DNA from: Pontiella sp.
GTDB taxonomy: Bacteria > Verrucomicrobiota > Kiritimatiellia > Kiritimatiellales > Pontiellaceae
Length of the DNA: 64,000 nucleotides
Assembly: GCA_050290185.1 (NCBI GenBank)
Contig: JBNKHE010000003.1
Location: 270,729 to 334,728, forward strand
Reading direction: 5' to 3'
The notes under the pieces were generated by a model. It did not search any database and had not been told where the DNA came from. It saw only the letters and a program-made list of their open reading frames with translations. This document shows, one piece after another, positions 4,407-64,000 of this stretch. Position 1 is the stretch's first letter, and each line of letters begins with the position of its first letter. Both the position numbers and the translations under genes were made by a program.

Positions 4407-4483
<77 letters not shown>

Positions 4484-7035: not shown

Positions 7036-7063
7036 CTACACGCATTGCTGTGTTCGTAAAATG

Positions 7064-7099
7064 CCCTGAAGACGTATGTTCTTTAGGGTTTTTGTTTTT
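7064..7099 (+). terminator. Riboswitch-controlled intrinsic terminator
   Basis: CCCTGAAGA-loop-TCTTTAGGG followed by TTTTTGTTTTT. Confidence 0.85.
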
Positions 7100-7110
7100 C
7101 AGGAGCAGTT

Positions 7111-8316: not shown

Positions 8317-8363
8317 TGACAAGTGATTCGTGATAAGGCGTGCTTCACGTTTCAAGCGTCACG
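8316..8363. repeat. Heptamer tandem-repeat element (TGA-heptads followed by inverted TCA-heptads)
   Basis: ATGACAA GTGATTC GTGATAA ... TCACGTT TCAAGCG TCACG. Confidence 0.55.
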
Positions 8364-8376
8364 AACGGAGTGAATT

Positions 8377-8886: not shown

Positions 8887-8987
8887 CCATTTAGATTTTT
8901 GAATTCCGGTTTCCGGTTCTTGGGTCTGCGACAACGTTCGTATAGCGTGCAGGAATTGGATGTAGGATTTCCTCAATTGGATTATTT

Positions 8988-9446
8988 ATGCAGAAGAAAA
9001 AAGTCAACGGACGTCGCGAAACACGTGAATGGATCATGCAGTTTCTGTTTCAGCTCGATTTCAATCCCGAGCCGATCGATATCGCTCTGAAGGATTTCTG
9101 GGAAGAGAAGGATCCCAGCGATCGCGAAAAGAACTACGCCGAAGAAATTATCAAGGGCGTGGTACAGCATAAGCAAGAACTGGATGAGCGGCTCTCGGAA
9201 TATGCCAACCGCTGGAACTCCGACCGCATGGGGGCCGTTGACCGCGCCGTGATGCGCGTGGCCTTGTTTGAGATGCTCTATCGCGAGGATGTTCCGCCCG
9301 TGGTGTCGATCAACGAGGCCGTCCATTTCGCCAAGGATTTCAGCAGCTTCCAGTCCGGCCGATTCGTTAATGGTGTACTGGACCGCATCCGCAAGGAAAT
9401 CGACCGCCCGGCGCGTACTACCTACAAACCCAAGGGACAGAACTAA
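8988..9446 (+). CDS. nusB: Transcription antitermination factor NusB
   Basis: RRETRE, VDRAVMR, VSINEAV, FVNGVLD. Confidence 0.96.
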   Translation: MQKKKVNGRRETREWIMQFLFQLDFNPEPIDIALKDFWEEKDPSDREKNYAEEIIKGVVQHKQELDERLSEYANRWNSDRMGAVDRAVMRVALFEMLYREDVPPVVSINEAVHFAKDFSSFQSGRFVNGVLDRIRKEIDRPARTTYKPKGQN

Positions 9447-10348
9447 TGGCGGGTTGGTTTGGCGCTCTGTCTAAAACGCGGAGTATTCTGCAGAAGGTGT
9501 TTTCTTCTGGTGTGGGAGATGCCGGTGAACTCGATGTCGAGGAGTTGGAGGAAATCCTGCTGCGGTCGGATGTGCCGGCACGTCTGACCATGGAGATTGT
9601 CGACAAGCTGGAATCGGCATCGCGTAAAGTATCGCGCAAGGATCTTCTCCGGGATTTGCTGACGGATGCCCTGGGCGAAGCCCAACCGTTTGTTTGGCCG
9701 GCGGGCAAGGATCCCTATGTCGTCATGCTGCTGGGCGTCAACGGATCAGGGAAAACGACGACCGCGGCCAAGCTTGCCAAAAAAGCTTTAGGCGAAGGAC
9801 TCAAGCCTTTGCTCTGTGGATCCGACACCTTTCGTGCCGCCGGCTCGTCCCAGCTCAAACTGTGGAGCGAACGGGTCGGGTGCGATTTTGTCGGCGGCGA
9901 AATGGGCCACGATGCCGCGGGCGTTGCGTTCAACGCCGTCGATTCCGCCCTCGAAAAGAATTGTGGCGTGGTATTGGTCGACACCGCCGGGCGAATGCAC
10001 ACCAAAACACCGCTGATGGATGAATTGCCGAAGATGTGCCGCTCCATGAACAAGTGTTTACAGGGCGCACCACATGATGTCTGGATGGTGCTTGATGCTT
10101 CCCTCGGCCAGAATGCCATCATTCAGGCCAAGCAGTTTAATGCGGTTGTGCCGCTGACCGGAATTGTCGTTACCAAACTAGACGGTTCCTCCAAAGCCGG
10201 GTTTCTTTTTTCCGTGAGATCCGAACTCAATGTGCCGATCCTGTTCACCGGCCTCGGCGAAGGTGAAGACGACCTTGTTCCCTTCAATGCCGGTCAATTT
10301 GTCGATGCGCTTGTTGGGGATGACGCCGGGGTGGACGAAACACGCTGA
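9446..10348 (+). CDS. ftsY: SRP receptor FtsY
   Basis: GVNGSGKTTT, DTFRAA, DTAGR, TKLDG. Confidence 0.96.
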   Translation: MAGWFGALSKTRSILQKVFSSGVGDAGELDVEELEEILLRSDVPARLTMEIVDKLESASRKVSRKDLLRDLLTDALGEAQPFVWPAGKDPYVVMLLGVNGSGKTTTAAKLAKKALGEGLKPLLCGSDTFRAAGSSQLKLWSERVGCDFVGGEMGHDAAGVAFNAVDSALEKNCGVVLVDTAGRMHTKTPLMDELPKMCRSMNKCLQGAPHDVWMVLDASLGQNAIIQAKQFNAVVPLTGIVVTKLDGSSKAGFLFSVRSELNVPILFTGLGEGEDDLVPFNAGQFVDALVGDDAGVDETR

Positions 10349-14236: not shown

Positions 14237-15376
14237 TTATCTGCGGGCGTTGGCGATATGCTTGAGCATGCTGCTGCCGCGCTCCGGGTCGACCCTGGAC
14301 AGCTCTTTGGCTTCGCGCTCGGCGGAATCCCACTTCTGCTGCTGAAGGTAACTGTAGGAGAGCAGATAGCGGGCATCCGCGTAGGACGGATCAAGGGACA
14401 AGGCCTGTCTGCATGCTTCCTGTACCTTGGCATAATCAGACAAATTAAAGCTGGCCATTCCTGTGCGGTAGTAGGCGTCCTTTCGGCTTGGATCGGCCAC
14501 AACCGCTTGCTGATATTGGGCAAGTGCCGCAGCGTATTTCTTTTCCCCGTAGAGCCGGTCGCCTTCCTTCATGAATTTTACGGCGTCTTCCGGGTTGGAT
14601 GACGATGCGGCTGTTCCTGAACCATCCAGCCGGGCGATGGCGTTCCGGGCCGCTTCGGCGTGGCTGCCTGACCCTCCGGCTTTCCGGACATAGGCCTGAT
14701 AGTATTGAAGCGCTGCATCCTTGTCGTGCAACCATTGTTCGTGAATAACCCCCAGGTTGTACAGGGCGGGAGCATAGTCGGGATCGGCCAGCGTAATTTT
14801 CTTAAGACGGCTGATGACCTGTGCGCTGCCCTGGCCATGATTCAGCTCCGCGAGGGCGAGGGCATTTTGTGCTGCCGGATCATTCGGGGTGGCGGCGACT
14901 GCTTCTGCCATAATGCGCGTCGATTGGGCCCAGTCCCGTTTTTTGGCTGCAATCAGGCTTTTCAAGGCAAGGGCGGTTTTGTTCTTCGGATTTTCCCCGA
15001 GATACATGTTGATCGATTTTAAGGCCCCATCAAAATCATCCGAATGGAATTGGGCCATGGCCAGATTCAACCGTGCGTCTGTAATCGTCTCGGATAACGC
15101 GCAGGCATCGTCGAAGGCTGCCGCCGCTGCCTTCGGCTCATCCAGTTGCCAAAGCACCAGTCCGAGCTTGTTGAAGGCCATCGATTTCCGGACGTTTCCC
15201 GAGAGACGTCCCGTCGCTTTTTCGAGCAGCGCACGCGCCTGGACCAGATCGCCCTCGTCCCATGCCTGGATGGCCTTGCTGTATTCCTTCTCGCCGGAGC
15301 GGCCGCCGCAGCCCACAAACATCGCGAGTACGAGCAACAGGCCCGACCCGATAATCAAAATCCTGTTTTTCTTCAT
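14237..15376 (-). CDS. TPR-repeat lipoprotein
   Basis: FVGC lipobox; repeated TPR helices (ALYNLG, AYYRTG). Confidence 0.85.
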   Translation of the reverse strand: MKKNRILIIGSGLLLVLAMFVGCGGRSGEKEYSKAIQAWDEGDLVQARALLEKATGRLSGNVRKSMAFNKLGLVLWQLDEPKAAAAAFDDACALSETITDARLNLAMAQFHSDDFDGALKSINMYLGENPKNKTALALKSLIAAKKRDWAQSTRIMAEAVAATPNDPAAQNALALAELNHGQGSAQVISRLKKITLADPDYAPALYNLGVIHEQWLHDKDAALQYYQAYVRKAGGSGSHAEAARNAIARLDGSGTAASSSNPEDAVKFMKEGDRLYGEKKYAAALAQYQQAVVADPSRKDAYYRTGMASFNLSDYAKVQEACRQALSLDPSYADARYLLSYSYLQQQKWDSAEREAKELSRVDPERGSSMLKHIANARR

Positions 15377-15771
15377 GATGCAGAAATTCCTTTAACCCAC
15401 ACCTGTCGGCTGCGGGGTCCATCAAATTCACAAAAATAGAGGCTTTGCCATGTGCCCAGTTGCAGCTTCCCATCGGAAATAATCACCTGGGCGGACGAGC
15501 CCATCATACTGGCCTTCACATGGGCCGCCGTATTGCCCTCGAAATGGCTGTAACCCCCGTTCCAGGGAACCACCCGATCCAGGACCAGCTCCATATCCGC
15601 CGTGACGTCCGGGTCGGCGTTTTCGTTGATCGTTACGCCGGCGGTTGTATGGGGGATAAAAACTGTTACAATGCCCTCTGAAATGCCACATTCCTGAATC
15701 ATTTCGTTTACTTGCCGGTCAATTTTAACAAAGTCGGTCCGGGCTCGGGTTTGTATGCTGAAGCTCCTCAT
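15373..15771 (-). CDS. yjbQ: YjbQ/UPF0047 secondary thiamine-phosphate synthase family
   Basis: PHTTAGVTINENADPDV, LGTWQ, EFDGPR. Confidence 0.93.
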   Translation of the reverse strand: MRSFSIQTRARTDFVKIDRQVNEMIQECGISEGIVTVFIPHTTAGVTINENADPDVTADMELVLDRVVPWNGGYSHFEGNTAAHVKASMMGSSAQVIISDGKLQLGTWQSLYFCEFDGPRSRQVWVKGISAS

Positions 15772-15907: not shown

Positions 15908-17176
15908 TTGCAGTTTATTGCGAATCACATCCTAACACTTGCAACCATGGCACTCCTGCTGTGTTTGTCGGGCTTCTTTTCCGGAACGGAATCCGCCCTT
16001 TTTTCATTGAGCCGCAACCAGATCCGGAAGCTCAGAAACGACGGGCATCAGGTTGAAAAACTGCTGGCTTTGCTCGCTGACAATCCATCGGGACTGCTGG
16101 TGGCTATTCTTTTCGGGAATCTGGTGGTCAATATCCTCTTCTTCTCGATCAGTGCCGTGTTGAGTATCGAAATTGCATCGATATATGGCGATTGGTATCA
16201 GGCTGCCATCGGTGTTTCCGTACTGTTACTGGTCATTCTGGTGGGGGAAATCCTGCCCAAGGCGGTCGGCATATCATTTCCTGAACGCATCGCGAAGCTC
16301 AACTCCCGGCCGTTGCTGGGATGGTTTCATTTTATGGGGCCGGTCCGGCGGGTACTGGAAATCATTACCAACCGCATGGAGCCGGCTGACCAGCACGACC
16401 ACCGCCTCGGGGCAGACGAACTGAGGATGTTGATCGATGCCACTCACCATGACCCGACCTTTGGCAAACAGGAAAAGGCCATTATTGAAGACATTGTCAC
16501 GCTCCCCGAAATCCGCGTGCGGGAAATCATGGTTCCGCGGGTGAAACAGTTGTTTCGCCGTGTGGATGCCCCGGCGGGTGAAGCGTTGGCGGAGGCTTGT
16601 GAACAGCAGATCGAGCTGATTCCGGTTTACGAGGACGAAGAAGATAATATTGTCGGGGTGGTGGAGACGCGCAGTCTTTTTGTGGATGGCGATCCGGCCC
16701 GGCCGCTTTCCGACTTTACCCTCCCGGTAAGGTTTGTTCCGGAGACCAAGCGTGCAGATGAGATGCTTCAGGAATTTCTCGACGATGAATTGCGTCTGGT
16801 TTGCGTGGTCGACGAATATGGAGGGCTGGCGGGAACGGTATGTCTGGAAGACCTGTTGGAAGAGGTGGTCGGAGAGTTTGATGTGATGGAGGCCCCGCCG
16901 GTCGAACAGCTCGGGGAGTCCATCTACCGGTTGCAAGGCAGTCTGGGTATTCGTGAATGGCGCAGTCTTTTTGTGGGCTATCTCCCGCGCGAAATGATGC
17001 AGGATCTTGCCCTGGACACGGTGAGCGGGCTCGTGGTGTCGATCCTGAAGCGATTGCCAAAGGCCGGCGATGTTGCCGTGGTGGGAAGCCTGCGTTTTAC
17101 CGTCGAACAAGTGCGGTCAAACCGCATTGAAAGCGTTCGTTTGGAACTGGTGGACTCCAACGGGGGAGAATCGTGA
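15908..17176 (+). CDS. CNNM/hemolysin-family (DUF21-CBS-CorC) transporter
   Basis: FFSGTESA, GEILPK, IMVPR, VVDEYGG. Confidence 0.9.
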   Translation: MQFIANHILTLATMALLLCLSGFFSGTESALFSLSRNQIRKLRNDGHQVEKLLALLADNPSGLLVAILFGNLVVNILFFSISAVLSIEIASIYGDWYQAAIGVSVLLLVILVGEILPKAVGISFPERIAKLNSRPLLGWFHFMGPVRRVLEIITNRMEPADQHDHRLGADELRMLIDATHHDPTFGKQEKAIIEDIVTLPEIRVREIMVPRVKQLFRRVDAPAGEALAEACEQQIELIPVYEDEEDNIVGVVETRSLFVDGDPARPLSDFTLPVRFVPETKRADEMLQEFLDDELRLVCVVDEYGGLAGTVCLEDLLEEVVGEFDVMEAPPVEQLGESIYRLQGSLGIREWRSLFVGYLPREMMQDLALDTVSGLVVSILKRLPKAGDVAVVGSLRFTVEQVRSNRIESVRLELVDSNGGES

Positions 17177-51272: not shown

Positions 51273-51415
51273 GGTATTCTTGCTTGATCAAAAGCCCGGA
51301 TTTCTATCGGAACGACCGCGTTTCGGCGAGTAAAACCTCTCGGTTTTCTGGAGGTATTTTCGGGGTGTTTTTCCAAGTCACGGCAGGGCAATGGGTAGTA
51401 GGGCAAGGGAATATT

Positions 51416-51522
51416 CTGGAGTGCGGTGGCTACCAACGGGCGACACCGCTTTTCGGATGCACCGCACCGTAGACTCTGCGTGCGGAAAGCGGCGTCGCCT
51501 TGCAGTTGCCACCGCACTCCAG
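51416..51522. repeat. Long palindromic REP-like element
   Basis: CTGGAGTGCGGTGGC...GGCGACACCGCTTT // AAAGCGGCGTCGCC...GCCACCGCACTCCAG. Confidence 0.8.
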
Positions 51523-51820
51523 GACATCTTCTACTGCGAAGCCGCACTGCTTCATTCCAAGCCACAAACCAATAGCCACATACCAATCCTTTACTTAAAC
51601 CTGAACTAATTTTAACTGTGCGAATGTTATTGGTGCGCTTATGGGGCGTCACGTTGAGAGGGCGAATGATGACGAAAGCGTTCTAATTCATCATATTAAA
51701 TATAGTATATGACTTGAGTTTATATTATCCATGCTGGGTTAATTTAAAATTGGCTTTCGTAAGATCAAAGATATTTTTTTTAAGGGAAAGTCGATTCGAA
51801 TCGAAATGTTGGAGTGTACG

Positions 51821-54800
51821 ATGAAAAAGATAGCATGGTTGTTTCTCGCGGTTTTTTGGTGCAGTCGCCTGTGGGCGGCAACGCTGTATGTGGATCTGAA
51901 CAGCGCAGCAGCAACTCCGCCGTACACCAACTGGGTGAGCGCGGCCACCAATATCCAGGATGCCGTGGATGCATCAGTTGCTGGCGACACGATTATGGTT
52001 GCTGACGGGCACTATCTCCTTTCGACCAGAATCTTGGTCAACAAAGCACTACTCCTTCAGAGTGTTAACGGCTCCGATGCAACCATCGTCGATGGTCTGG
52101 GAACTGTGCGTTGCTTCAACCTTCAAAACTGGGCCAGCACGGTTGATGGATTCACGATTACCAACGGTTACACTTCGGGAGATGGTGGCGGAGTTTATTG
52201 TTCAGGAGGCATCCCTGTGATAACCAACTGCATAATCACTGGGAACACTGCAAACTACGGTGGCGGTGGTGGAATGTACAAAGGTAAGGCCTACAACTGT
52301 GAGATAAGGGGGAACACGGCATTAGCTGGAGGTGGGATGTTCAGTGGCAAGGCATACAATTGCACGGTCAGTGGTAATTTCGGACTCCATGGTGGAGGTA
52401 TATACAGGGGTTCGGCAACTGACTGTACGATTGTCGGGAACTCGGCAACCAACACGGGCGGCGGGATGTTTGATGGGAATCTTATCAACTGTCTGGTGTG
52501 CAGCAATTCGGCCTACTATGGAGGAGGCTTGGCTTCCGGCACCGCAGACTTGTGCGTCTTTACGGATAACATTGCATTCTGGGGTGGTGCGGTGCTCGAT
52601 GGAACCGCGAATAATTGCATGATTACCGAAAATGTCGCCTATTACGGTGGCGGGATGCATAGCTACTGGAGCGAAGAGTGTACGGCTGCTAACTGCACGA
52701 TTGTTGGCAACACCGCCATCTTCCAGGCCGGTGGGATAGGAAGAGGCACAGTGCACAACTGCATCGTCTATTACAATACCTCGCCGAATGGAGCGAACCT
52801 AAGCGAAATCGATGCATCCTACACGTGTTCTCCCGATGTAACGAATGGCGTGGCTGGCAACATCACGAATGCTCCGATGCTGCTTTGGACCTCCCACATC
52901 GCTTCAAATTCTCCCTGCCGAGGTGCCGGAAGCGCTACTTACGTTACGGGAGCCGACATTGATGGCGAGGCTTGGGCTAATCCACCTTCCATGGGATGCG
53001 ACGAGCCGATGGGTGCAGCAACGGGTGCGCTGCAGGTGGCCATCAGTGTAGATGCGGACGCGGCATTGACCGGCTATCCGGTCTGGTTCCACGCCGATAT
53101 TGAAGGCATTCCCTCTCGATTGGTCTGGGACTTTGGCGCTGGGTCTATGGTTACCAATGTCCTGTCACCGGAACATGCCTGGGGAGTAGCAGGCAGTCAG
53201 GATATCGTTCTTACCGTGTACAATGACACCTGGCCGGGCGGCGTTTCGGCTACACAGACAGTATCCATTGTCGCCGAGACCAATCCGACCAATTCCGCTA
53301 TCTATGTGGCTTCGAGCGGGAATGATACAAACAATGGATCCAGCTGGGTGACCGCCAAGGCGACGATTCAGGCGGCCATCGATGAGCAATATGCCGGTGG
53401 TTTGGTGCTGGTGGGCCCCGGAACCTATGCCGGCGGTATCGAGCTGGGCAAAGGGATCTCGGTTCTGGGGGTTGATGGGCCGGCGGCAACGATGGTTGAC
53501 GGGCTTGGCAGCGGACGTTGTTTTGAAGTCGACGATACGGTATGCACCATCAGCGGATTGACCATCATGAATGGATCTACGGATTTTAATGGTGGGGGCA
53601 TATTCTGCAAAGGAGGCAACGCCACGGTTACCAATTGTATCGTGACGCAAAGCCATGCCAAATGGAATGGCGGAGGGATTGCGGGATGTGGTGCCGTGAG
53701 CCACTGTACGATTGTCAGCAATACTGTTGGTTCTGTGAGCTTTGATCATAGTTACGGTGGCGGGGTGGCTGGCGGCTTGGTGGATTACTGTACTGTTTCT
53801 GGAAACCGGGCGCAATACGGTGGTGGTGGGATGGTCGATACCGAAGCAGAGCAATGTCTAATCACTGATAATACAGCAGCAACTCTTGGGGGAGGGATTG
53901 CTTTTGGGATCATGGCAAATGACTGCATCATCAGCAGCAATACCGCGCTCTATGGGGGTGGGCTGTATCTCTGCCCGGCAAATAGCTGTACGATCATCAG
54001 CAATAGTGCAACACATGCCGGTGGGATGTACTTGGGTGAGGCGAACTACTGCACGATAAGCGGAAACACGGCGACAGATTACGGCGGCGGCATGCGACAT
54101 GCGACGGCGAATCACTGCGTGATCACTGGTAATACATCAGACAAGTGGGGTGGAGGGGCGGTTGAGTGTACGGTGAACAACTCGATGATCAGTGGAAACT
54201 GGGCGAGCTATTTCGCTGGGGGTATGTATTACGGTACGGCGAACAACTGCACAATCAGCGGGAACTCGGCGGCCAACAATGCTGGAGGGGCATATGGTAC
54301 TAAAGCTTACAACTGCATTGTGTGGTATAATGAATCGTTGAATAAAAGCAATTTTTCGAGCGGTGGATCAGCCAGGTATTCCTGTTCACCGGATTTGCCT
54401 CAGGGCGTGCGACACAATACCACCAATGCGCCGGGTTTCGTGGATTACGCAAACGGGGACTACCGCCTCATGTCCAATTCGCCCTGCATCAACTGGGGCG
54501 ATAATTCATATGTTTCCAATGCAGTGGATTTCGCCGGGAATCCGCGCGTTGCCGGCGGCTATGTTGACATGGGCGCCTACGAGTTCCAGGGAACGCCGGC
54601 GCCGGACCGGGATGGAGATGGCATGGACGACGCCTGGGAGCGGGACACGTTCGGATATAATGCCGATCCAGCTGACAACGCCGATGGCGATGTGTATAAC
54701 AATGGCGATGAATTCACCGCCGGCACCGATCCGACCAATGCGGCCTCCTTCTTTGCAGTAAGCAATGCGTTTCCTTCCGTCGGATTTGTCGTGGAATGGA

Positions 54801-54964
54801 ATGCTGTCACTGGCCGCTGGTACAAGGTGCTGTGGACGGACAATCTGACCAACAGCTATCAGTCTATAGCTGACAATCTGGAATATCCGCAAAGCAGTTA
54901 CACGGATACGGTGCATAGTGCCGAGTCCGTCGGATACTACCGGGTCGAAGTCCGCATGAAGTAG
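51821..54964 (+). CDS. Secreted right-handed beta-helix repeat protein with PKD domain, choice-of-anchor-Q-like region and C-terminal Asp-rich/sorting module
   Basis: Signal peptide; two 'YV....W..A...IQ.A.D' modules; many GGG..NC.I.GN repeats; WDFG PKD; SPCIN.G..D..GNPRV..VDMGAYE; DRDGDG..DAWE..EF.AGTDP; terminal YYRV. Confidence 0.82.
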   Translation: MKKIAWLFLAVFWCSRLWAATLYVDLNSAAATPPYTNWVSAATNIQDAVDASVAGDTIMVADGHYLLSTRILVNKALLLQSVNGSDATIVDGLGTVRCFNLQNWASTVDGFTITNGYTSGDGGGVYCSGGIPVITNCIITGNTANYGGGGGMYKGKAYNCEIRGNTALAGGGMFSGKAYNCTVSGNFGLHGGGIYRGSATDCTIVGNSATNTGGGMFDGNLINCLVCSNSAYYGGGLASGTADLCVFTDNIAFWGGAVLDGTANNCMITENVAYYGGGMHSYWSEECTAANCTIVGNTAIFQAGGIGRGTVHNCIVYYNTSPNGANLSEIDASYTCSPDVTNGVAGNITNAPMLLWTSHIASNSPCRGAGSATYVTGADIDGEAWANPPSMGCDEPMGAATGALQVAISVDADAALTGYPVWFHADIEGIPSRLVWDFGAGSMVTNVLSPEHAWGVAGSQDIVLTVYNDTWPGGVSATQTVSIVAETNPTNSAIYVASSGNDTNNGSSWVTAKATIQAAIDEQYAGGLVLVGPGTYAGGIELGKGISVLGVDGPAATMVDGLGSGRCFEVDDTVCTISGLTIMNGSTDFNGGGIFCKGGNATVTNCIVTQSHAKWNGGGIAGCGAVSHCTIVSNTVGSVSFDHSYGGGVAGGLVDYCTVSGNRAQYGGGGMVDTEAEQCLITDNTAATLGGGIAFGIMANDCIISSNTALYGGGLYLCPANSCTIISNSATHAGGMYLGEANYCTISGNTATDYGGGMRHATANHCVITGNTSDKWGGGAVECTVNNSMISGNWASYFAGGMYYGTANNCTISGNSAANNAGGAYGTKAYNCIVWYNESLNKSNFSSGGSARYSCSPDLPQGVRHNTTNAPGFVDYANGDYRLMSNSPCINWGDNSYVSNAVDFAGNPRVAGGYVDMGAYEFQGTPAPDRDGDGMDDAWERDTFGYNADPADNADGDVYNNGDEFTAGTDPTNAASFFAVSNAFPSVGFVVEWNAVTGRWYKVLWTDNLTNSYQSIADNLEYPQSSYTDTVHSAESVGYYRVEVRMK

Positions 54965-54976
54965 CAAGGTAGGGCA

Positions 54977-55167
54977 TGCTCGCCTGTCCAGAGTTTATCG
55001 ACGGGCCGAGCGCGCCGTCCGGGGGCACACCGCACAGGGATAGTGATTTCACACAGAGACAGCAGAGATCACAGAGGTAGAGTTTTTTCTCCGCTCGCAC
55101 CGTTATCCCTGCGTGAGATCATTTTCGGCAGGGGGTGCTCGCCCGTCCTGAGTTTATCGAAGGGCCG
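54977..55167. repeat. Pair of 32-bp direct repeats (REP-like)
   Basis: TGCTCGCCTGTCCAGAGTTTATCGACGGGCCG (54977-55008) vs TGCTCGCCCGTCCTGAGTTTATCGAAGGGCCG (55136-55167), 29/32 identical. Confidence 0.75.
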
Positions 55168-55469: not shown

Positions 55470-56774
55470 ATGAACTCTTTTTCTACATATACCGCTGAGT
55501 TGGGAAGATATGCTGGTGAAGTATTGGGTGCTCCCGCTGGAGATTTCAATGCTGTGGATATTCAAAAATCCATATTCAGCACGCGGCACGTCGAGCAATA
55601 CCTTCGCACTTTAATTCCAATTGAAGAGCTACGAGATGCTGGGTCTTTTTTTACAGGTGACCGTATGGCTGATACTGCCTCCGAATATTTTGGCGATAGT
55701 GTTACTTTGAAATCATTTATTGTTGATCCAGCCTGTGGTGCCGGGAACTTGCTAATTGCCTGCTCAAAAAAATTACCAATTAAGAAGACTAGTCTTAAAA
55801 AAACTCTGGGTATTTGGGGGCAGTGCCTAGCGGGGTTTGATCTGTTTGATGAGTTTGTAGAGACGACAAAGCTTCGTTTGATACTTGAGGCCGTTTCTCG
55901 TGGCGCTAGCCCAGATATCTTGAATATTGACGAAGCGAAAGATTTATTTCCTTACATCCATAAAGGAAATGCATTTGATTATGCGGCTACGCTTAAAGTT
56001 GCGACGCATATCATAATAAATCCTCCTTACTATAAAATGCAGGCGTCTTTAGATTGCGAATGGGCTGATGGAAAAATAAACGCGGCAGCCAAGTTTATGG
56101 AGCTGGTTGCTCAATGTGCTGCTGATGGAACACGTGTTAGTGCAATCCTTCCTGATGTTTTGCGCTCTGGTACTCGTTATGACAAATGGAGAACCTTAAT
56201 ATCGGCCAAGTTGAATTGTTCTATTATGTCGACAGGAAGGTTTGATTCAAAAACCGATGTCGATGTTTTTCTGCTAAGCGGACAGGTCGGCTCTGAGATT
56301 AACGATCCGGATTGGTTAGGCGTGCAGTATAGTGAAAAAACAATTGATGATTTTTTTGATGTTTCGATCGGCCCTGTGGTTCCCTATCGCGACAAGAAAG
56401 ATGGTGACGATGCCCCCTATATCTTTCCCAAACAACTCCCCTTGTGGGGCAAGGTTCGAAGTCAGGATATAAAAGAAACTTGGGCATTCTCGGGGACGCT
56501 CAAAAAGCCACCCTTTGTTGCTATACGCCGGACGTCCAGTCCTTCTGACACATATCGAGCCGGCGGAACATTGATCAACGGGACGCAGGATGTTGCCGTA
56601 GAAAATCATTTGATTGTTGTGCGCCCTAAATCCGGGCGGGTGAGAGATTGTGAGAAATTACTCAAAGTTCTCCAAGATGAGAGCACCAATTCTTTTTTGA
56701 ACCAGCGCATTCGTTGCCGTCATTTAACGGTTTCCGCCGCTAAAGAAATTCCATGGATTGGAGATTTGGTATGA
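55470..56774 (+). CDS. Amino (N6-adenine) DNA methyltransferase, gamma-type motif order
   Basis: GSFFT, motif I IVDPACGAGN, motif IV INPPY, AILP; C-terminal TRD-like region. Confidence 0.88.
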   Translation: MNSFSTYTAELGRYAGEVLGAPAGDFNAVDIQKSIFSTRHVEQYLRTLIPIEELRDAGSFFTGDRMADTASEYFGDSVTLKSFIVDPACGAGNLLIACSKKLPIKKTSLKKTLGIWGQCLAGFDLFDEFVETTKLRLILEAVSRGASPDILNIDEAKDLFPYIHKGNAFDYAATLKVATHIIINPPYYKMQASLDCEWADGKINAAAKFMELVAQCAADGTRVSAILPDVLRSGTRYDKWRTLISAKLNCSIMSTGRFDSKTDVDVFLLSGQVGSEINDPDWLGVQYSEKTIDDFFDVSIGPVVPYRDKKDGDDAPYIFPKQLPLWGKVRSQDIKETWAFSGTLKKPPFVAIRRTSSPSDTYRAGGTLINGTQDVAVENHLIVVRPKSGRVRDCEKLLKVLQDESTNSFLNQRIRCRHLTVSAAKEIPWIGDLV

Positions 56775-58825
56775 GTAAGACAAGTATCCGTTTTTCATCT
56801 GACATATTACGCAGGCTAGGTGAAGAACTTAATCCGAGTATGGATAAAGGGATTTTGGAGTTGGTAAAGAATTCCCATGATGCAGATGCAACTGAATGTA
56901 AAGTGGAACTACTCGATGCATCTAAGGGCGGTACTATTAGGATTTCAGACAATGGATTTGGGATGTCTGAGCGTGATGTGGACAATGGTTGGTTGGTTTT
57001 AGGATCTTCAAGAAAGACGAAAAAACTCACTCCAAAAGGGCGAATTCCAGCGGGCAGCAAAGGGCTGGGAAGATTGGCTGCCTTGCGTATGGGGCATGTT
57101 GCGAAGCTAAGAACGCGTCCTCAAGAAGATTTTTTGTCTGAATATCATGTCGAAATCGACTGGGACAAGTATGAGGGGAAACGTCTGGTTGAAGATGTAT
57201 CTTTGAATATTGAAAAAGTTGCTAGTGACGTGGGGTTCGGAGGAACGGAAATCACTGTGGAGAAGTTGAGATATCGCATAACTAAAAGTGATGTGAAGCG
57301 ACTTGCGAGGGAATTAATATTGCTAGCGGATCCTTTTGCTGACTCTAAATATGGATTCGACCCTATTCTTGTTGCTCCGGAATTTAAGGATTTAGAAGCT
57401 CAGGTTAAAAGAAGATATTTTCAAGATGCGAATTACCACTTAATTGCTGAAGTCAAGGGCGACGGGAGTGTGCTTGCGACCGTTTATGACTGGAAAGGGA
57501 GTGTTTTATTTGAAACAGCGGAGTCGGAATTGAAGCCTCCTTATAAGGCTCCACAAATGAAATTCGAATTGTGGGTGTTCATCCTTGATTCAAAATCATT
57601 TGCCAGTCGATCCGTTTCGCTAGGAGAAGTTCGTGATTGGCTCAATGCATTCGGTGGAGTGCACTTATATCAAAATGGACTGAGGGTCTCTCCGTATGGG
57701 GACAAGGGAAATGATTGGCTGGACATTAATCTTCAGCGCGCAAAAAGTCCGGAGGAGAGACCAAGTACGAATACCATTATTGGTCGAGTTACGATCGATG
57801 ATAAAGAAGAGCTTTTGGTTCAGAAAACAGATCGTTCAGGATTTATAGAAACGGATGCCTTTAGAGATGTTAAACGTTTCAGTCAAGATGTACTGAAGTG
57901 GATGGCTAAGCGCCGGATGGAGGTCGCGGATAAACGCCGCCGAAAAAATCGTGTTGAAGCGCCTAAGGAAAGCTCAGATGGCAAGGTCGCTTTAGAAAAG
58001 GCTATTGAAAGCGCTCCGGCTGAGGTCAAAACAAGTATCACCGAGGCGTTGAAGAAATATGATAAAGCCAAAGAAAAGGAGATCGTAACGTTAAAGAAAG
58101 ATGTTCAGCTGTATCGCACATTAAGCACTGCGGGGATCACTTCAGCAACGTTCGCACATGATTCGCATGGTAACCCAATAAAGTTGGCATATCAGGCTTT
58201 TGCTTTGCTAAAAGTTCGAGTTAAAAAGCTCCTGATGGGGGATAATTCTGTAGATTTAGATGCTCCATTTGAGAAGCTGACGCGTTCCCTTAAGAGCTTG
58301 AGTGCCCTGGGTAAGACAACTCTCAAGTTGGTAGATCACGAAAAAAGGCGGACGGGAAGTGTCCCCGTAAACGGAACGATCCAGACGGCGATTGATGACT
58401 TTGAAGATTACTTTAAGGGGCGAGATATTAAGGTGACAGTTATGTTGTCTGGAACTGCCCCTGAAATTTATGCGAATGAGGCAGCGCTAGAATCAATAAT
58501 TTTCAATTTACTTAATAATTCATCAACAGCATTAGAGGAAATATCTGATAGATCGCGAAAAGTAGAGGTTGTTTCCGAAGTCGTTTCTTCGGAGGCTGGC
58601 CGTGAGGTGAAGATTACAGTTCGTGATAATGGAGATGGTATTAAGGGGATTAAACTGAGTGATTTATGGTTGCCAGGGCAAACGACTCGTAAGAATGGAA
58701 CTGGGCTTGGACTCACTATCGTACGGGATACAGTCGAGGATCTAGGCGGCCATATTGATGTGGTGCCACGCGGTGTTTTAGGAGGGGCGGAATTTAACGT
58801 GTATTTGCCGCTACTGGAGAAATAA
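56771..58825 (+). CDS. MORC/GHKL ATPase fused to histidine kinase
   Basis: N-term ELVKNSHDA, DNGFGM, GSKGLGR, GTEI; S5-like GGVHLYQNGLRV.PYG...DWL; coiled coil; H-box FAHD; second GHKL NLLNNS, DNGDGI, GTGLGL, GAEF. Confidence 0.88.
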   Translation: MSKTSIRFSSDILRRLGEELNPSMDKGILELVKNSHDADATECKVELLDASKGGTIRISDNGFGMSERDVDNGWLVLGSSRKTKKLTPKGRIPAGSKGLGRLAALRMGHVAKLRTRPQEDFLSEYHVEIDWDKYEGKRLVEDVSLNIEKVASDVGFGGTEITVEKLRYRITKSDVKRLARELILLADPFADSKYGFDPILVAPEFKDLEAQVKRRYFQDANYHLIAEVKGDGSVLATVYDWKGSVLFETAESELKPPYKAPQMKFELWVFILDSKSFASRSVSLGEVRDWLNAFGGVHLYQNGLRVSPYGDKGNDWLDINLQRAKSPEERPSTNTIIGRVTIDDKEELLVQKTDRSGFIETDAFRDVKRFSQDVLKWMAKRRMEVADKRRRKNRVEAPKESSDGKVALEKAIESAPAEVKTSITEALKKYDKAKEKEIVTLKKDVQLYRTLSTAGITSATFAHDSHGNPIKLAYQAFALLKVRVKKLLMGDNSVDLDAPFEKLTRSLKSLSALGKTTLKLVDHEKRRTGSVPVNGTIQTAIDDFEDYFKGRDIKVTVMLSGTAPEIYANEAALESIIFNLLNNSSTALEEISDRSRKVEVVSEVVSSEAGREVKITVRDNGDGIKGIKLSDLWLPGQTTRKNGTGLGLTIVRDTVEDLGGHIDVVPRGVLGGAEFNVYLPLLEK

Positions 58826-58826
58826 G

Positions 58827-59480
58827 ATGGATGGTTTTCGGGATATAAAGCAGATCTTTGTTTTTGATGATGATGAGCAAACCAGAAACGGCTCTCTTGA
58901 GTTGATTTTGGAAATAGGTGTTGATGGAATACCTATAAACAAACCAGAAAAGAATATTACTGAACTAATAAAGCAAGTAGATAGCAACACGGGATTATTT
59001 TGTGATTATCACCTTCGAAAACATCAATACGCATGTTTCAACGGAGACAAAATTGTGGCCGCAGCATACAACGCAAGCAAGCCAGCTCTCTTGTGTACTT
59101 CATGTACGGATTTTGATTCTAGCCTATCCCGAATGATTAGGAGGTATATTCCAGTAATTTTAGCTCCCGAGGAGCAGGATACGGAGTGTATTATCAATGG
59201 ATTTGTGGTTTGCATTAATGAGCTCAAAGGTAATTTTATTAGCGAGCGAAAACCATGGAGAGCTCTAGTTCGTGTTGCAGAGGTTGATCCTGAAAACAAA
59301 GCATCATATGTAGTGGTTCCCTCATGGCATGCTGAGGCTAAGATCAAGGTCTTTTGGGATGACTTTCCCCGTGAGTTAATACCGCTAGCTAAACAAGAAG
59401 AGCATCGTTTCCACGCTATGGTGAATTTAGGAAGTGAACATATTCAATCGTTATATTTATATGACTGGGAAGCATCCTAA
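58827..59480 (+). CDS. Receiver (REC)-domain protein with C-terminal beta-rich domain
   Basis: IFVFDDD acidic pocket, LFCDYHL phospho-acceptor Asp, LLCTS; follows the kinase by 1 nt. Confidence 0.72.
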   Translation: MDGFRDIKQIFVFDDDEQTRNGSLELILEIGVDGIPINKPEKNITELIKQVDSNTGLFCDYHLRKHQYACFNGDKIVAAAYNASKPALLCTSCTDFDSSLSRMIRRYIPVILAPEEQDTECIINGFVVCINELKGNFISERKPWRALVRVAEVDPENKASYVVVPSWHAEAKIKVFWDDFPRELIPLAKQEEHRFHAMVNLGSEHIQSLYLYDWEAS

Positions 59481-60442
59481 TGTTTTCGCTCCCCGAAAAT
59501 TTCGTGGCAATATTGGATGTAGGGCACGGGAGTTCTGCAATTCTTAGATCTGAAGGTGAGGTTGCTGTATTCGATACAGGTGAGAACACAAGGTTGTTGG
59601 AGTTCCTTCAGCTTTATGGCATCTGCGAAATTAAATACATCTTCATTTCTCATGCCGATAAGGATCATATTGGTGGTTTGCTTGGCGTGTTGACGCAGCA
59701 TGAAATCGTAACGAACAATATCTTTCTTAATAGCGATGCATTAAAGGATACTTTCGCTTGGAAAGACCTTGTGTATCAACTGCAGGAGCTAGCGAGGATG
59801 GGAGAGGTTAACTGGGAGTCTTCTCTCCGGGAAGGTAATGTTTTTAGCGTTGGAAATAGCACCTGTAATGTGCTTTCACCTTCATTAGCCTTGGCGGCAA
59901 CTGGTCCCGGAGCAACAACATCTTCTGGAAAGAAAGTCACATCGAACTCTGCGAGTGCTGTGATCAAGGTTGAGTCGTCCAGTAACTCATTCCTTTTTCC
60001 TGGAGATATTGATTCGGTCGGCCTTGAAGAGGCTTGGGTTGAATCAGATTTTTCCGTTAATACATTAATCTACCCGCACCATGGAGGAAAGTCTGGGGCT
60101 GGCGAAGATGAATTCACGCGAGACCTAATTAATCGAGCAAATCCAAAGTGTGTAATTTTCTCAAATGGCAGGAATAAGCATAGTAATCCTCGACCAGAAA
60201 TTATTGATAAAATTCATAGCCATAACGGCGATATTCAAATCCTGTGTACCCAGCTTTCGAAGGGTTGTGCAGAGCAATATCCAGACGAAGGTGCGCTAAA
60301 GGAAATTGATTCCGAGCACCGGTGTGCAGGATCAATAATCATGGACTTGGATTCAGGAGATTTTGTGTCTCCGGAGAAAGAAGCTTTCGCCTCATTCATT
60401 AAGGCTCATGTAGCCACTCCTATGTGTTGTTGCCAGGGGTAG
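59480..60442 (+). CDS. ComEC/Rec2-type metallo-beta-lactamase-fold hydrolase (soluble, probable nuclease)
   Basis: LDVGHG, DTG, SHADKDHIGG, N.AS, PGD, PHHG, SNG.N; no TM or signal peptide. Confidence 0.85.
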   Translation: MFSLPENFVAILDVGHGSSAILRSEGEVAVFDTGENTRLLEFLQLYGICEIKYIFISHADKDHIGGLLGVLTQHEIVTNNIFLNSDALKDTFAWKDLVYQLQELARMGEVNWESSLREGNVFSVGNSTCNVLSPSLALAATGPGATTSSGKKVTSNSASAVIKVESSSNSFLFPGDIDSVGLEEAWVESDFSVNTLIYPHHGGKSGAGEDEFTRDLINRANPKCVIFSNGRNKHSNPRPEIIDKIHSHNGDIQILCTQLSKGCAEQYPDEGALKEIDSEHRCAGSIIMDLDSGDFVSPEKEAFASFIKAHVATPMCCCQG

Positions 60443-60510
60443 GTGCTAGAAAAACGGGGCAGTCCTCGGATATAAGTATCGACGAGGGCGTACGGCCAGG
60501 ATAATCGGGG

Positions 60511-60642
60511 CTATCAGTCGTCGCTTTGAACGAGCGCAATCAATTCCTTGAGTCTGGGCGTGGTTTTGTCTTCATACAGGCGCGGGTGGCGGCCGCCGAA
60601 GGTGGGGTGTTCCTTTTCCGTGGATAGCATCACCTGCTGATC
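60511..60642 (-). pseudogene. Duplicated remnant of the mfd 3' end
   Basis: 132 bp ungapped match to 61549-61680, 118/132 identical; encodes DQQVMLSTEKEHPTFGGRHPRLYEDKTTPRLKELIALVQSDD*. Confidence 0.9.
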
Positions 60643-60702
60643 CAGCACCTTCCGTCCTTCTCCATCATTGAACGGGTTTCATACATCGGATATAAATGTT
60701 AA

Positions 60703-61509
60703 ATGAATCTGTTGCTTACCGATCTGAAGGGGCTTGATGAGAGTCCGCTGGCGGAAATTGACGAAACCGTTAAAGCGATCTATCGGCTGATTACATTCAG
60801 CAAGAGCCACAAGGAGTCGGATCTGCTGAATCGTTACCTTGAAGCGATGCAGCATCTTCGCGATGTGCTGAGTATGAAGAATGCGCAGCAGGAAGCGCAG
60901 ACCGAGAACGAGGCACGGGAATACCTCGCCAATCTGAAGCTTGGCGTAAACCTCATTGTCGAAGAAATCGGAGCGGGCCACGGGCTTGAAACCCCGATGG
61001 ATCTCTTTCGGCTTTTCCGGCTTATCGCACCGGAGGCCGCGGCAAGGCATCCGAATCAGTTTCGTTCAACAACCGTTCAGTTCGGACCTTGCCTGGGTGC
61101 AAATCCGGCGCAGGTTTCTAACCTGATTGAGCAGTTGTTCCATGCGGTGCGCGAGATAAAACATCCCGTTACGCGGGCGGTCTATATGCACCATGAACTG
61201 GTGCGGATCCATCCGTTTGTCGATGGCAATGGCCGGCTTAGCCGAATGGCGAAAAACTGGATGCTCATGTACGAACTTTACCCGCCCATGTTTATAAAAA
61301 ACATATCGGATAAGAAGCGCTACATTGCCCGGTTGCAAAAAAGCTTTCTGGCTATCGAAAATGAACCAAACGCATTTCATCCGGCGACTCAGGAGTTCTT
61401 TCAGGATGAGTTCCGCAGGCTCAGAGCCAGTGCAACCTTTATTCTCAACCGCATGCTTAAAAATCCGAACCTTGAATTTTCGGGCGAATCCGAGAACCTG
61501 TTGGGTTAG
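60703..61509 (+). CDS. Fic-domain protein
   Basis: Canonical HPFVDGNGRLSR motif. Confidence 0.92.
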   Translation: MNLLLTDLKGLDESPLAEIDETVKAIYRLITFSKSHKESDLLNRYLEAMQHLRDVLSMKNAQQEAQTENEAREYLANLKLGVNLIVEEIGAGHGLETPMDLFRLFRLIAPEAAARHPNQFRSTTVQFGPCLGANPAQVSNLIEQLFHAVREIKHPVTRAVYMHHELVRIHPFVDGNGRLSRMAKNWMLMYELYPPMFIKNISDKKRYIARLQKSFLAIENEPNAFHPATQEFFQDEFRRLRASATFILNRMLKNPNLEFSGESENLLG

Positions 61510-61548
61510 CACCCCATGGGAAAAGGGGCCCGTGAATAACGGAATCCA

Positions 61549-64000
61549 CTACCAATCGTCGCTTTGAACGAGCGCAATCAATTCCTTGAGCATGGGCGTG
61601 GTTTTGTCTTCATACAGCCGCGGGTGGCGACCGCGGAAGGTGCGGTATTCCTTCTCTTTGGAAAGCATTACCTGCTGATCCCGGACAATGACGGATTTTA
61701 GTCCCTGATCCGCGGCGACGATGCGCAGCTGGGCGATGAGCATCAGGCGCTGCATCTCCGCGGGAAGCTTGCCGAAGCGATCCTTGATCTCGCGTTTGAT
61801 CAGCGTGATTTCTTGTTTGGTGGCCAGGGCGGAGATGCGTTGGTAGAGGCGCAGGCGCAGGTTTTCGTCCTCGATGTATTCATAGGGGATGTAGGCTCCG
61901 CTTGCGGAGGTTCCGGTGGCGGGCGAGAGGTCGAGGAAGTCGAGCTTGACGGCGACGTCCATGAGCGGCGGCGGCTTTTTGCCCTGCATGATGGCGATGG
62001 TGCGTTTGAGCAGCTGGCAGTAGAGGTCGAAGCCGACGGCGGAGATTTGGCCGCTTTGTTTGGCGCCGAGCAGGTTGCCCGCGCCGCGCAGTTCGAGGTC
62101 GCGCAGGGCGAGCCGGAAGCCGGAGCCGAGGCCGGTGTGGCGCTGGATGGCGTTCATGCGGTCGCGCGCGGCGTCGATCATGTCGCCGCCGGGCGAGAGC
62201 ATCAGGTAGGCGAAGGCCTTGTGGTTGGAGCGGCCGACGCGGCCGCGCAGCTGATATAGATCCGAAAGGCCGAAGCGCTCGGCGTTTTCGATAATCATGG
62301 TATTGCAGTTTGGAATATCGACGCCGCTTTCGATGATGGTGGTGCAGAGCAGAACGTCGAACCGCCCCTGCACGAAGGCGTGCATGATTTCGGAGAGTTC
62401 CTTTTCGCCCATTTGTCCGTGCGCGACGGCGATGCGTGCTTCGGGGACGAGCGCGCGCAGGCGGTTGTCGACGTGGTGGATGGTTTTGACGCGGTTGTGC
62501 AGATAGAAGACCTGTCCGCCGCGGTGCAACTCCATGCGGATGGCTTCGGCGATGATTTGCTCGTCGTAGGGAATGACGTTGGTATCGACCGGTTGGCGTT
62601 CCTGCGGCGCGGTCTTGATGGTGCTGAGATCGCGAACGCCGGTGAGGCTCATGTAGAGGGTGCGCGGAATCGGCGTGGCGGACATGGTGATGACGTCGAC
62701 CTGTTTGCGCAGTTCCTTCAAGTGCTCCTTGGCCGTGACGCCAAAGCGCTGTTCCTCGTCGATGATGACTAGCCCGAGGTCCTTGAACTGGACGTCGCCG
62801 GAAAGCAGGCGGTGCGTGCCGATCAGGATGTCGACCTCGCCTTCGGCGGTGCTGAAAATCGTTTTGTTCTGCTGGGCGCGGGTGCGGAAGCGGCTGACCA
62901 TATCGACCCGGATGGGGAAGGCGGCCATGCGTTCGGTGAAGGTGTCGTAGTGCTGCTGTGCGAGAACCGTGGTCGGGACGAGCACGGCGACCTGTGTTCC
63001 GTCCATGACCGCCTTGAACGCGGCGCGCATGGCTACTTCCGTTTTGCCGAACCCGACGTCGCCGCAGAGCAGGCGGTCCATGGGGCGGATCTTTTCCATG
63101 TCGCGCTTGAGTTCATCGGTGGCGGTGAGCTGGTCGGCGGTTTCGGTGTAGGGGAAGGCGGACTCGAACTCGGCCTGCATGGCGGTGTCCTTGGAGAATT
63201 GATAGCCGCGCTTGGCCTGCCGTTCGGCCTGGGTTTGCAGCAACTTGGCGGCGATATCCTGGACGGCGTCCTGGGCGCTCTCCTTGTCGTTGCGCCACTT
63301 GCGTCCGCCGAGCGTGTGCGGCTTCGGGGTCTGCTTGCCCATGCCTTTGTAGCGGGTCAGCAGGTGTGCCTGCGTGACGGGCAGGTAGACCTTTTCGCCT
63401 TTGGCGTATTCGATCGACAGCACTTCCATGCTTTTTCCGCTGAAGGAGGTTTCGACGATGCCGAGGTATTTCCCGACGCCGTGCTCGACATGCACGACGA
63501 AGTCGCCCGGCTGGATGTCGGCGGCTTCGGACACGCGTTCCTGCTGCTTATGGAAACGCCTGGCGGTGCGGGCATGGGCGCTGCGGTTGGTGTGGTAGGC
63601 GTAGAAATCGCTTTCCGTGACGATCAGGATCTTGCGGGCATGGTCGATCGCGCTTTCGTGGAGGACACCGTGGTGGAGCTGAAGGGCATCGAAGCCGTCG
63701 ATGTCTTCGTAGAGTTCCCTGAAGCGCGTCAGTGTTCCCTTGGTTTCGAAGAATAGGTGTATGTTCCAGCCTTGGGACAGGTCGGCGCAACGTTGCTCTA
63801 CAAACCGGCGGCGGGCCTGTTCCGCCGCCTTGGGATGAAGGTCGAACGAGACGGCCTGGAGGTTGGTGTCGTAAAACTCAAAACCCGAAGTGAGGCGTGA
63901 CGATTGAGGCGTGATTGGAGGAGTTTCTGCCTCCGAGCTCCATGCGCTATGCTCCATGCCCACTATTAGGGTGTTTCCGGGGAGGAGGTCGAGGAGGTTG
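61549..64000 (-). CDS. mfd: Transcription-repair coupling factor Mfd (partial, 5' part beyond window end)
   Basis: VVHVEHGVGKY, GDVGFGKTEVA, DEEQRFG, SATPIPRT, QLRGRVGR, DLELRGAGNLLG; frame stays open to 64000. Confidence 0.97.
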   Translation of the reverse strand, partial: NLLDLLPGNTLIVGMEHSAWSSEAETPPITPQSSRLTSGFEFYDTNLQAVSFDLHPKAAEQARRRFVEQRCADLSQGWNIHLFFETKGTLTRFRELYEDIDGFDALQLHHGVLHESAIDHARKILIVTESDFYAYHTNRSAHARTARRFHKQQERVSEAADIQPGDFVVHVEHGVGKYLGIVETSFSGKSMEVLSIEYAKGEKVYLPVTQAHLLTRYKGMGKQTPKPHTLGGRKWRNDKESAQDAVQDIAAKLLQTQAERQAKRGYQFSKDTAMQAEFESAFPYTETADQLTATDELKRDMEKIRPMDRLLCGDVGFGKTEVAMRAAFKAVMDGTQVAVLVPTTVLAQQHYDTFTERMAAFPIRVDMVSRFRTRAQQNKTIFSTAEGEVDILIGTHRLLSGDVQFKDLGLVIIDEEQRFGVTAKEHLKELRKQVDVITMSATPIPRTLYMSLTGVRDLSTIKTAPQERQPVDTNVIPYDEQIIAEAIRMELHRGGQVFYLHNRVKTIHHVDNRLRALVPEARIAVAHGQMGEKELSEIMHAFVQGRFDVLLCTTIIESGVDIPNCNTMIIENAERFGLSDLYQLRGRVGRSNHKAFAYLMLSPGGDMIDAARDRMNAIQRHTGLGSGFRLALRDLELRGAGNLLGAKQSGQISAVGFDLYCQLLKRTIAIMQGKKPPPLMDVAVKLDFLDLSPATGTSASGAYIPYEYIEDENLRLRLYQRISALATKQEITLIKREIKDRFGKLPAEMQRLMLIAQLRIVAADQGLKSVIVRDQQVMLSKEKEYRTFRGRHPRLYEDKTTPMLKELIALVQSDDW

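Follow-up and report, generated by a model that had tools for sequence, protein, structure and literature searches.

A cassette of four genes was analyzed in a 64,000-nt stretch of DNA from Pontiella sp. (Pontiellaceae; assembly GCA_050290185.1, contig JBNKHE010000003.1, positions 270,729-334,728 of the forward strand), which is called the window here and to which the nucleotide coordinates refer. The genes code for a DNA methyltransferase (MTase), a histidine kinase with a paraMORC-type ATPase, a receiver protein and a metallo-beta-lactamase-fold (MBL) protein that resembles the nuclease domain of ComEC. We place at about one half the probability that the cassette is a mobile anti-phage or anti-plasmid element similar to Ambrosia, in which a nuclease would be under post-translational control by the receiver and the MTase would serve as recognition subunit or bait. 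The design itself is known from Ambrosia; what is new here is a predicted interface between the receiver and the MBL protein and a swap of the last three genes within one genus. The genes are as follows.

55470..56774, + strand: MTase, 434 aa, gamma-class amino-DNA methyltransferase
56771..58825, + strand: paraMORC-kinase, 684 aa, GHKL ATPase, S5-like region, linker and histidine kinase core
58827..59480, + strand: receiver, 217 aa, receiver domain and C-terminal barrel resembling the oligonucleotide/oligosaccharide-binding (OB) fold
59480..60442, + strand: MBL, 320 aa, soluble ComEC-like MBL-fold hydrolase, putative nuclease effector

The four co-oriented genes are coupled through an ATGA overlap at 56771-56774, a 1-nt gap at 58826 and a TAATG overlap at 59478-59482, and re-reading of the junctions agreed with an earlier note made on this DNA.

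The four proteins and their conserved residues

The earlier note had assigned a domain to each protein and named their motifs, and the analysis bore out both. The MTase matches PF02384 (E 3.6e-5, Pfam), and its profile matches in the PDB include M.BseCI and the M subunits of type I systems. Motif I (DPACGAG, residues 86-92) and motif IV (NPPY, 184-187) are kept in 26/26 aligned rows, and a conserved C-terminal domain occupies residues 290-430. The NPPY motif and the profile matches suggest that the target is probably the N6 position of adenine, the N4 position of cytosine being a less likely alternative. In the other loci in which the fourth gene codes for an MBL protein (MBL-type loci), the MTases are 35-41% identical to that of the window and the kinases 43-53% identical to the window kinase.

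The kinase contains PF13589 at residues 24-146 and PF02518 at 569-681 (Pfam). The residues of the GHKL ATPase (E30 and N34 of ELVKN 30-34, D60, G62, G64, K97-G98-x-G100-R101 of the KGLGR motif, and K352) and those of the kinase core (H463, N579/N583, D619-G621-G623 and GTGLG 643-647) are invariant in 26/26 rows. The region around K352 was considered S5-like by its position and motif rather than by a domain model. Residues 296-306 fit the S5 motif of MORC proper, GhXhhpXXRhl (PMC2292703), with one extra residue before R305, and for this reason the label paraMORC-type is used.

The receiver protein has no match in Pfam, PADLOC or NCBIfam. Its AlphaFold model has a predicted local distance difference test (pLDDT) value of 93.6, and residues 5-137 adopt a receiver fold that aligns with FixJ over 120 residues (Z 12.6, root-mean-square deviation (rmsd) 2.8). 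D14, D15 and D60, the latter in a CDY motif, are invariant, and T/S91 is found in 26/26 rows. The invariant H463 of the kinase and D60 of the receiver supply the anatomy of the His-Asp relay postulated by the earlier note, with the link from the receiver to the MBL protein represented by the predicted complex described below. The receiver family is large, with 339 clusters at 50% identity (E up to 1e-30).

The MBL protein matches PF00753 (E 3.5e-11) and, below the cut-off, the ComEC family TIGR00361 (E 5.6e-17), and its best PDB matches are ComEC (E 9e-21). The metal ligands H58, D60, D62 and H63 (HxDxDH, 58-63), D176, H200 and H201 are invariant in 26/26 rows. By analogy with ComEC, the protein is a putative DNA nuclease. 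According to the accessible text of PMC12455585, the isolated MBL domain of ComEC is a weak nuclease with no measurable affinity for DNA, which fusion to any DNA-binding domain speeds up about 7-fold; the free OB domain was of no help. The C-terminal tail of the window protein (residues 256-316; 60245-60442) has four conserved cysteines (C256, C263, C282 and C316), has no counterpart in the ComEC matches and may be a zinc site. These cysteines are lost in two loci (L019 and L020) and partly in a third (L028).

Relation to Ambrosia and exchange of the trio

The four-gene design, which the earlier note did not recognize as a named system, turned out to match the layout of Ambrosia. As described in the accessible part of the preprint, Ambrosia (AbrR-AbrA-AbrB-AbrC-AbrD) of Pseudomonas aeruginosa consists of an XRE protein, an N6 MTase, a HATPase kinase, a receiver protein bearing a wHTH (winged helix-turn-helix) and an HNH protein, is active against phage, and requires every domain as well as D60 for restriction; host toxicity was not observed (10.1101/2025.09.30.679545). 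The cassette has the same order of N6-MTase, HATPase histidine kinase, receiver with D60 and nuclease. Its PF02384/NPPY MTase corresponds to AbrA, and its kinase, with PF13589, H463 and PF02518, to AbrB. The output of the window receiver is an OB-like barrel, whereas that of AbrC is a wHTH; the fourth gene codes for a ComEC-like MBL protein, whereas AbrD is an HNH protein; and a HipB-like XRE regulator such as AbrR was not found upstream of the cassette, although it was also absent from the scanned loci with an HNH gene in fourth place (HNH-type loci). In addition, the window kinase belongs to a distinct subfamily, and the cassette spans ten phyla while Ambrosia is reported from Gammaproteobacteria. 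These comparisons place the cassette as a putative sister of Ambrosia, of the same design and, having no XRE, HNH or wHTH, not a member.

HNH-type loci were found in several settings. One is on a plasmid of Klebsiella variicola (L054), where the kinase is in pieces, the receiver Asp is residue 60 and the locus adjoins Ppl and PifA; the same order was seen in 8/29 MTase-seeded viral loci. Another (L184) is in a genome of the window's own genus (G362). The MTase of L184 is 74% identical to that of the window over 433 residues, but the kinases are only 27% identical over about 750 columns, and the likeness between the two DNAs (71%) stops at the stop codon of the MTase gene. This pattern shows that the kinase-receiver-nuclease trio has been exchanged behind one MTase, at the ATGA junction. 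In quick, unrooted trees of 55 MTase rows, the window clusters with two HNH-type rows from its own genus (support of 98-99% in the Shimodaira-Hasegawa-like approximate likelihood ratio test, SH-aLRT). An approximately unbiased (AU) test on 23 of these 55 rows, in which rows of the DUF262 type, three long-branched ones and an additional subset were omitted, rejected a single MBL-type clade with p 7e-84; the group had been named by effector before the tree was made and the subset was chosen afterwards. The nesting in this unrooted tree suggests that it was the MBL trio that came later to the window's genus. Between the receivers of MBL-type and HNH-type loci, homology is confined to the N-terminal 92 columns (HHalign 95.8%, E 7e-9), and those of the HNH type retain the canonical Lys and finish in helices.

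Ambrosia-like cassettes with no XRE gene are inserted directly behind hisB in two genomes from the same genus as the window (L184, G362:C322:1-4693; L185, G356:C265:1-2999). In L185 the MTase and the kinase type were seen and the contig ends before the effector. If these are Ambrosia, they fall outside the Gammaproteobacteria in which it has been reported. The Ambrosia locus of P. aeruginosa was not found in a Gammaproteobacteria sample in which 3/300 genomes matched, nor among plasmids, where a search seeded with a receiver of the HNH type returned one record. A description of an MBL version, or of a receiver-OB output in defence, was not found in a literature search that mostly did not extend to subscription papers, and the MBL variant may sit among the 500+ candidate clusters of the Ambrosia preprint.

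A predicted complex between the receiver and the MBL protein

Folded alone, residues 138-217 of the receiver form a five-stranded barrel (pLDDT 90.7). Foldseek matched it to the S1 domain of RNase E and to CspA (E 0.007-0.015, none at 0.001), and VIA-align to EF-P and cold-shock domains (best Z 6.8, rmsd 3.3, 67 residues aligned). Nearly all matches are OB folds with middling scores, and the barrel is consequently described as OB-like. The OB fold of ComEC is absent from the fold matches listed by either program; a search of BFVD gave nothing at E 0.001, and one of ESM Atlas gave unnamed clusters only. The barrel holds an invariant R-x-P-W-R-x-L-x-R motif and is net acidic, with a mean charge of -2.5 over 26 rows.

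When the MBL protein and the receiver were modeled together, the predicted complex scored 0.85 in three runs, and the best of three controls scored 0.00. This mark was reached by 116/157 solved complexes and 2/215 mismatched pairs, counts that are only rough for the alignments used here. The runs share at least 92% of the contacts, with a partner pLDDT of at least 87. On the barrel side, the interface includes residues 139-149, 163-170 and 194-202, among them the invariant W144, R145, L147 and R149. On the MBL side, close to the HxDxDH motif, it includes residues 36-41, 61, 65-74 and 91-100; E41 is kept in 23/26 rows and D96 in 25/26. The interface is the best conserved face of the barrel, with a conservation of 0.74 vs 0.50 at its other positions (p 0.001). 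The receiver is therefore predicted by these models to bind the MBL protein through the invariant face of the barrel. Mirror-tree analysis gave correlations of 0.72-0.84 for every pair of the four proteins, with none standing out, and a scan of 8000 longer candidates revealed no receiver-MBL or kinase-receiver fusion, a negative that carries little weight.

The model proposed for Ambrosia itself offers another explanation: the relay would induce transcription of the operon upon infection, the barrel would be a nucleic acid-binding output, and the nuclease would attack DNA, possibly after its modification by the MTase. Ambrosia reporters rise upon infection and, in the accessible part of the preprint, its authors propose transcriptional control (10.1101/2025.09.30.679545); moreover, the folds nearest to the barrel, S1 and cold-shock domains, are binders of single-stranded nucleic acid. 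Nonetheless, we consider this explanation quite unlikely for the cassette. It has no wHTH, and an inspection of small upstream ORFs (three in the window and 104 from 33 loci, up to four per locus) revealed no conserved gene and no XRE/HTH_3 protein, with two MerR-type matches only. Since the barrel is acidic and its conserved arginines are spent on the predicted interface with the MBL protein, docking to a protein is likelier than delivery of DNA by the barrel. The predicted interface speaks for control by direct contact between proteins more than for control of transcription.

Role of the MTase

The earlier note assumed that the MTase simply marks self DNA. This assumption became doubtful, and with it an explanation along the lines of that note: a gated but otherwise classical restriction-modification (R-M) system whose MTase would mark self, whose MORC-kinase would detect unmethylated sites and then license the MBL nuclease, and from which methylated phage would escape. 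The MTase motifs are intact, R-M-like operons are a typical setting of paraMORCs (PMC2292703, accessible part), and a sequence-blind nuclease would suit a sensor that reads methylation. In Ambrosia, however, methylation by AbrA leaves phage unprotected, so that phage from AbrA-expressing cells is still sensitive (10.1101/2025.09.30.679545, as far as the accessible text goes). Conservation over 55 MTases is 46% in the C-terminal, target domain and 39% in the catalytic domain; the higher value of the former suggests either a single, fixed target or a conserved surface for a partner. In classical R-M systems, by contrast, specificity is expected to diversify. The near-identity of MTases that serve different nucleases and the MTase-less loci described next also argue against the gated R-M explanation, which we regard as unlikely. 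As the earlier note stated, no restriction endonuclease (REase) is recognizable: the REase_II matches of PADLOC cover the GHKL domain only, and no conserved fifth gene (ORFs of at least 90 aa) was found in 50 loci.

Five loci have intact MBL metal ligands with the MTase absent (L019, L020 and L157) or split (L017 and L036), and all five keep the receiver or its barrel. A search with the window MTase did not find an MTase elsewhere in the genomes of L019, L020, L025, L022 and L003, which are incomplete and were searched without a positive control. The converse arrangement, a receiver with no downstream MBL gene, was seen in six loci (L003, L012, L013, L025, L044 and L047). An MBL gene with no receiver was not seen among four plasmid and three family-level viral matches obtained with the MBL protein as seed, too few for a test of an antitoxin role; the receiver-seeded set of loci cannot reveal such cases, and one MBL-seeded record (B. 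aenigmatica) was outside the count. The pattern of MTase-less loci fits a nuclease that would be silent until licensed, with the host spared without methylation.

The same MTase family also occurs in a third setting. Of 12 prophage loci inspected among the 18 remaining, 11 have the MTase gene facing a convergent gene pair (L194-L198, L202-L204, L211, L214 and L215; for example, L198:6908-9944). The larger gene of the pair codes for a DUF262 protein that matches NsnA of Menshen (E 4e-64 in L198 and 1e-56; two were scanned), and the smaller for a protein of 215-290 aa with no PADLOC match. The MTase and this DUF262/NsnA-like pair are a candidate third defence system on this MTase family. In L206 (6595-8293) and L208, a small repressor-like gene lies directly upstream of a same-family MTase gene and the contigs stop at the MTase stop codon. 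These contigs are presumably from filamentous, Pf-like phages. As a matter of speculation, the XRE gene of Ambrosia could be a phage repressor like the one found here.

Distribution and mobility

A receiver profile search of GTDB genomes gave 50 loci among 96 pattern matches, and their neighbors were identified by tblastn. All four genes are present in order in 34 of the 50, and four ORFs that each cover at least 80% of the query are present in 25, with ten phyla represented by record title. Of the remaining 16 loci, three are truncated where the contig begins, and the other 13 are incomplete or in decay. With this recurrence, the arrangement is not due to chance, and the synteny that the earlier note proposed to look for does exist elsewhere. 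Plasmids of Hymenobacter volaticus and Burkholderia sp. IDO3 (L051 and L052) carry complete cassettes, as do five prophage contigs (L154-L156, L158 and L159; 30 viral loci were returned, of which 23 had ordinary kinases). In the host family, the kinase subfamily was found in 1/54 genomes, the window's own, and 40 relatives lacked any substantial match to the DNA of the cassette. A kinase-seeded metagenome scan gave full-length relatives in 2/79 loci, the rest being mostly ordinary kinases. The distribution of these sequences indicates that the cassette is horizontally mobile, and the earlier idea of a conserved four-gene unit is well supported.

Another explanation is a selfish addiction or stress module, or an MBL protein acting on a substrate other than DNA (RNA, a cyclic nucleotide or a phosphoester), with no direct anti-phage role. 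MBL folds are promiscuous, with RNase Z and phosphorylcholine esterase among the weak matches, most genome loci have no recognizable defence neighbor, and partial or decayed copies are common (13/50). Yet the MBL protein matches ComEC far better than anything else, an HNH nuclease fills the same slot in the sister loci, and the genes are carried by prophages and adjoin Ppl/PifA, BrxL, DrmD or type I R genes in some loci. A role outside defence was accordingly judged improbable.

Just upstream of the cassette on the H. volaticus plasmid (L051:2837-5255) are a patatin gene and a gene for another MBL protein, which is PDC-M48B/LmuA-like, and the opposite strand has a further MBL-like gene and ThiF.

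Comparison with other known systems

PADLOC, NCBIfam and Pfam gave no system name for the four proteins. The HEF_HK (PF19191)/Response_reg_2 (PF19192) elements consist of a paraMORC-kinase and an atypical receiver beside mostly C5 methylases and Vsr (PMC8011034, accessible part). They share with the cassette a kinase made of HATPase_c_3, His-box and HATPase_c, an atypical receiver and a DNA methylase, but differ from it in that their methylases are mostly of the C5 type, Vsr is present and the receiver protein is about 600 aa long. Membership was rejected: PF19191 and PF19192 miss the cassette, the former with no match at E 0.1. The same genome provided a positive control on contig C11, where PF19191 matches only 16013-16213 and PF19192 only 14995-15525. 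A separate, canonical paraMORC locus is present there (L229, G000:C11:10000-24000, about 3940-10324 of the locus, minus strand), with Vsr-like and C5-type methylase genes, as judged by a look at the sequence, a 983-aa HEF_HK kinase and a 615-aa Response_reg_2 protein.

Like the MORC and paraMORC operons, the cassette has an N-terminal GHKL and S5-like module beside a methylase and a putative nuclease; unlike them, it has no SF2 helicase and its kinase core is fused, and neither a kinase fusion nor an MBL partner is described in the accessible part of PMC2292703. With the nuclease domain of ComEC, the MBL protein shares the HxDxDH, Asp and HH ligands, the best PDB match and an OB fold partner (PMC12455585, accessible part). 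It differs in being stand-alone, with no competence channel, in its Cys tail, and in having its OB-like partner, which is acidic, on a separate receiver protein. A type II R-M system differs from the cassette, which has no REase gene. A Mza-like system (PMC9523054, accessible part) was also considered and set aside as not relevant.

Sequence context of the cassette

Two features lie immediately downstream.

60518..60643, - strand: degenerate copy of the mfd 3' end, 114/126 bases matching 61556-61681, outside the cassette
60703..61509, + strand: fic-domain gene (PF02661, E 3.8e-14), not kept beside the cassette in other loci

The earlier note had placed the cassette next to a fic gene and an mfd duplication scar. 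Both are real, but the two mfd copies (60518-60643 and 61556-61681) flank fic and not the cassette, which rules out the duplicate as the insertion scar of the cassette. The 126-nt, 90% identical mfd 3'-end duplicate that encloses fic (60518-61681) is probably an integration scar, and fic homologues are found at other places in three contigs of two relatives. The G+C content is 44% in the MTase gene, 44% in the kinase gene, 40% in the receiver gene and 44% in the MBL gene, compared to 54% in the genome and 61% in mfd. The cassette is AT-richer than its flanks, as had been noted, although the 75% quoted for mfd came from a single 60-mer.

Single contigs from public runs cover 55599-60547 and 55733-60466 with zero differing bases (four runs of one study, which is possibly the source). 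As far as these four runs go, the gene order is not a mis-assembly. A contig of run X1 fuses 51398 to 54968 and bypasses a gene for a 1052-aa NosD-like/beta-helix surface protein, and another public-run contig departs from the window sequence at 55058; the region upstream of the cassette (51398-55058) differs between strains. This region and its border have an imperfect 46-nt direct repeat at 54968 and 55127. Promoter and terminator scans gave results no better than chance.

Proposed mechanism and significance

The initial observation was confirmed and its interpretation was partly supported. By analogy with Ambrosia and ComEC, a scheme can be proposed for sensing, phosphotransfer, DNase activity and defence. 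The MTase would bind a fixed DNA target as recognition subunit or bait. The paraMORC ATPase, whose residues are conserved, would read what state the MTase or the DNA is in and trigger autophosphorylation at H463. The phosphate would then move to D60 of the receiver, which matches the D60 that is essential in Ambrosia. The receiver is predicted to hold the MBL protein through its OB-like barrel, and phosphorylation would switch on the bound, silent enzyme, either by relief of inhibition, which we slightly prefer, or by recruitment to the complex of MTase, kinase and DNA. The MBL protein, as suggested by its likeness to ComEC, would degrade invading DNA with no sequence specificity of its own.

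Several points weigh against this scheme. The canonical beta-5 Lys of the receiver (position 113) is variable (R 9, K 6, D 4 and A 2 of 26) and is Ala in the window; without it, the receiver may escape the usual mode of phosphorylation. Interface positions of the MBL protein are no more conserved than the rest of it (0.57 vs 0.57), and the alignments from which the conservation of both interface sides was computed also fed the complex model. ComEC has an OB fold beside the MBL domain in one chain, and the score of the complex may owe something to this likeness. The MTase-less loci are in incomplete metagenome-assembled genomes or prophage contigs, and the frameshifts may be sequencing errors. 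The HNH-type loci (L054, L184, L188-L193, L201 and L209) were called Ambrosia-like by gene order, and in L054 also by the numbering of D60, without an alignment to AbrA-D. Defence-type neighbors are sparse, 8/113 flanking ORFs in 6/24 intact loci (PADLOC, E 1e-15; some generic; without a control set). They include BrxL and DrmD in L034, DrmD in L039 and a type I R protein in L026; weaker or generic matches in L007, L010, L021 and L040 would give seven loci if all were counted, with two matches to sigma-54 ATPases excluded.

More tentatively, and as a possibility that we hold at clearly less than even chances, the phosphorelay could switch the nuclease by direct contact through a new, OB-like output, and one MTase family could plug into at least three effector arms (kinase-receiver-MBL, kinase-receiver-HNH and the DUF262/NsnA-like pair). 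If this is true, the view of Ambrosia-like systems as transcriptionally controlled would fall, and a class of immunity that is sensed by a methylase and gated by a two-component relay would be defined. In Ambrosia, the methylase is needed yet phage DNA is not protected, and the role of the relay is only proposed. The predicted interface, with its named residues, is a handle on the choice between direct and transcriptional control, and cultured carriers exist in the plasmid-bearing H. volaticus and Burkholderia sp. IDO3. The natural swap, in which MTases that are 74% identical are followed by two different trios in one genus, marks the boundary of a module and implies that specificity would reside in the methylase and not in the nuclease. 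A nuclease gated by the binding of a receiver would represent a new output mode of two-component systems in immunity, and might be phospho-switchable.

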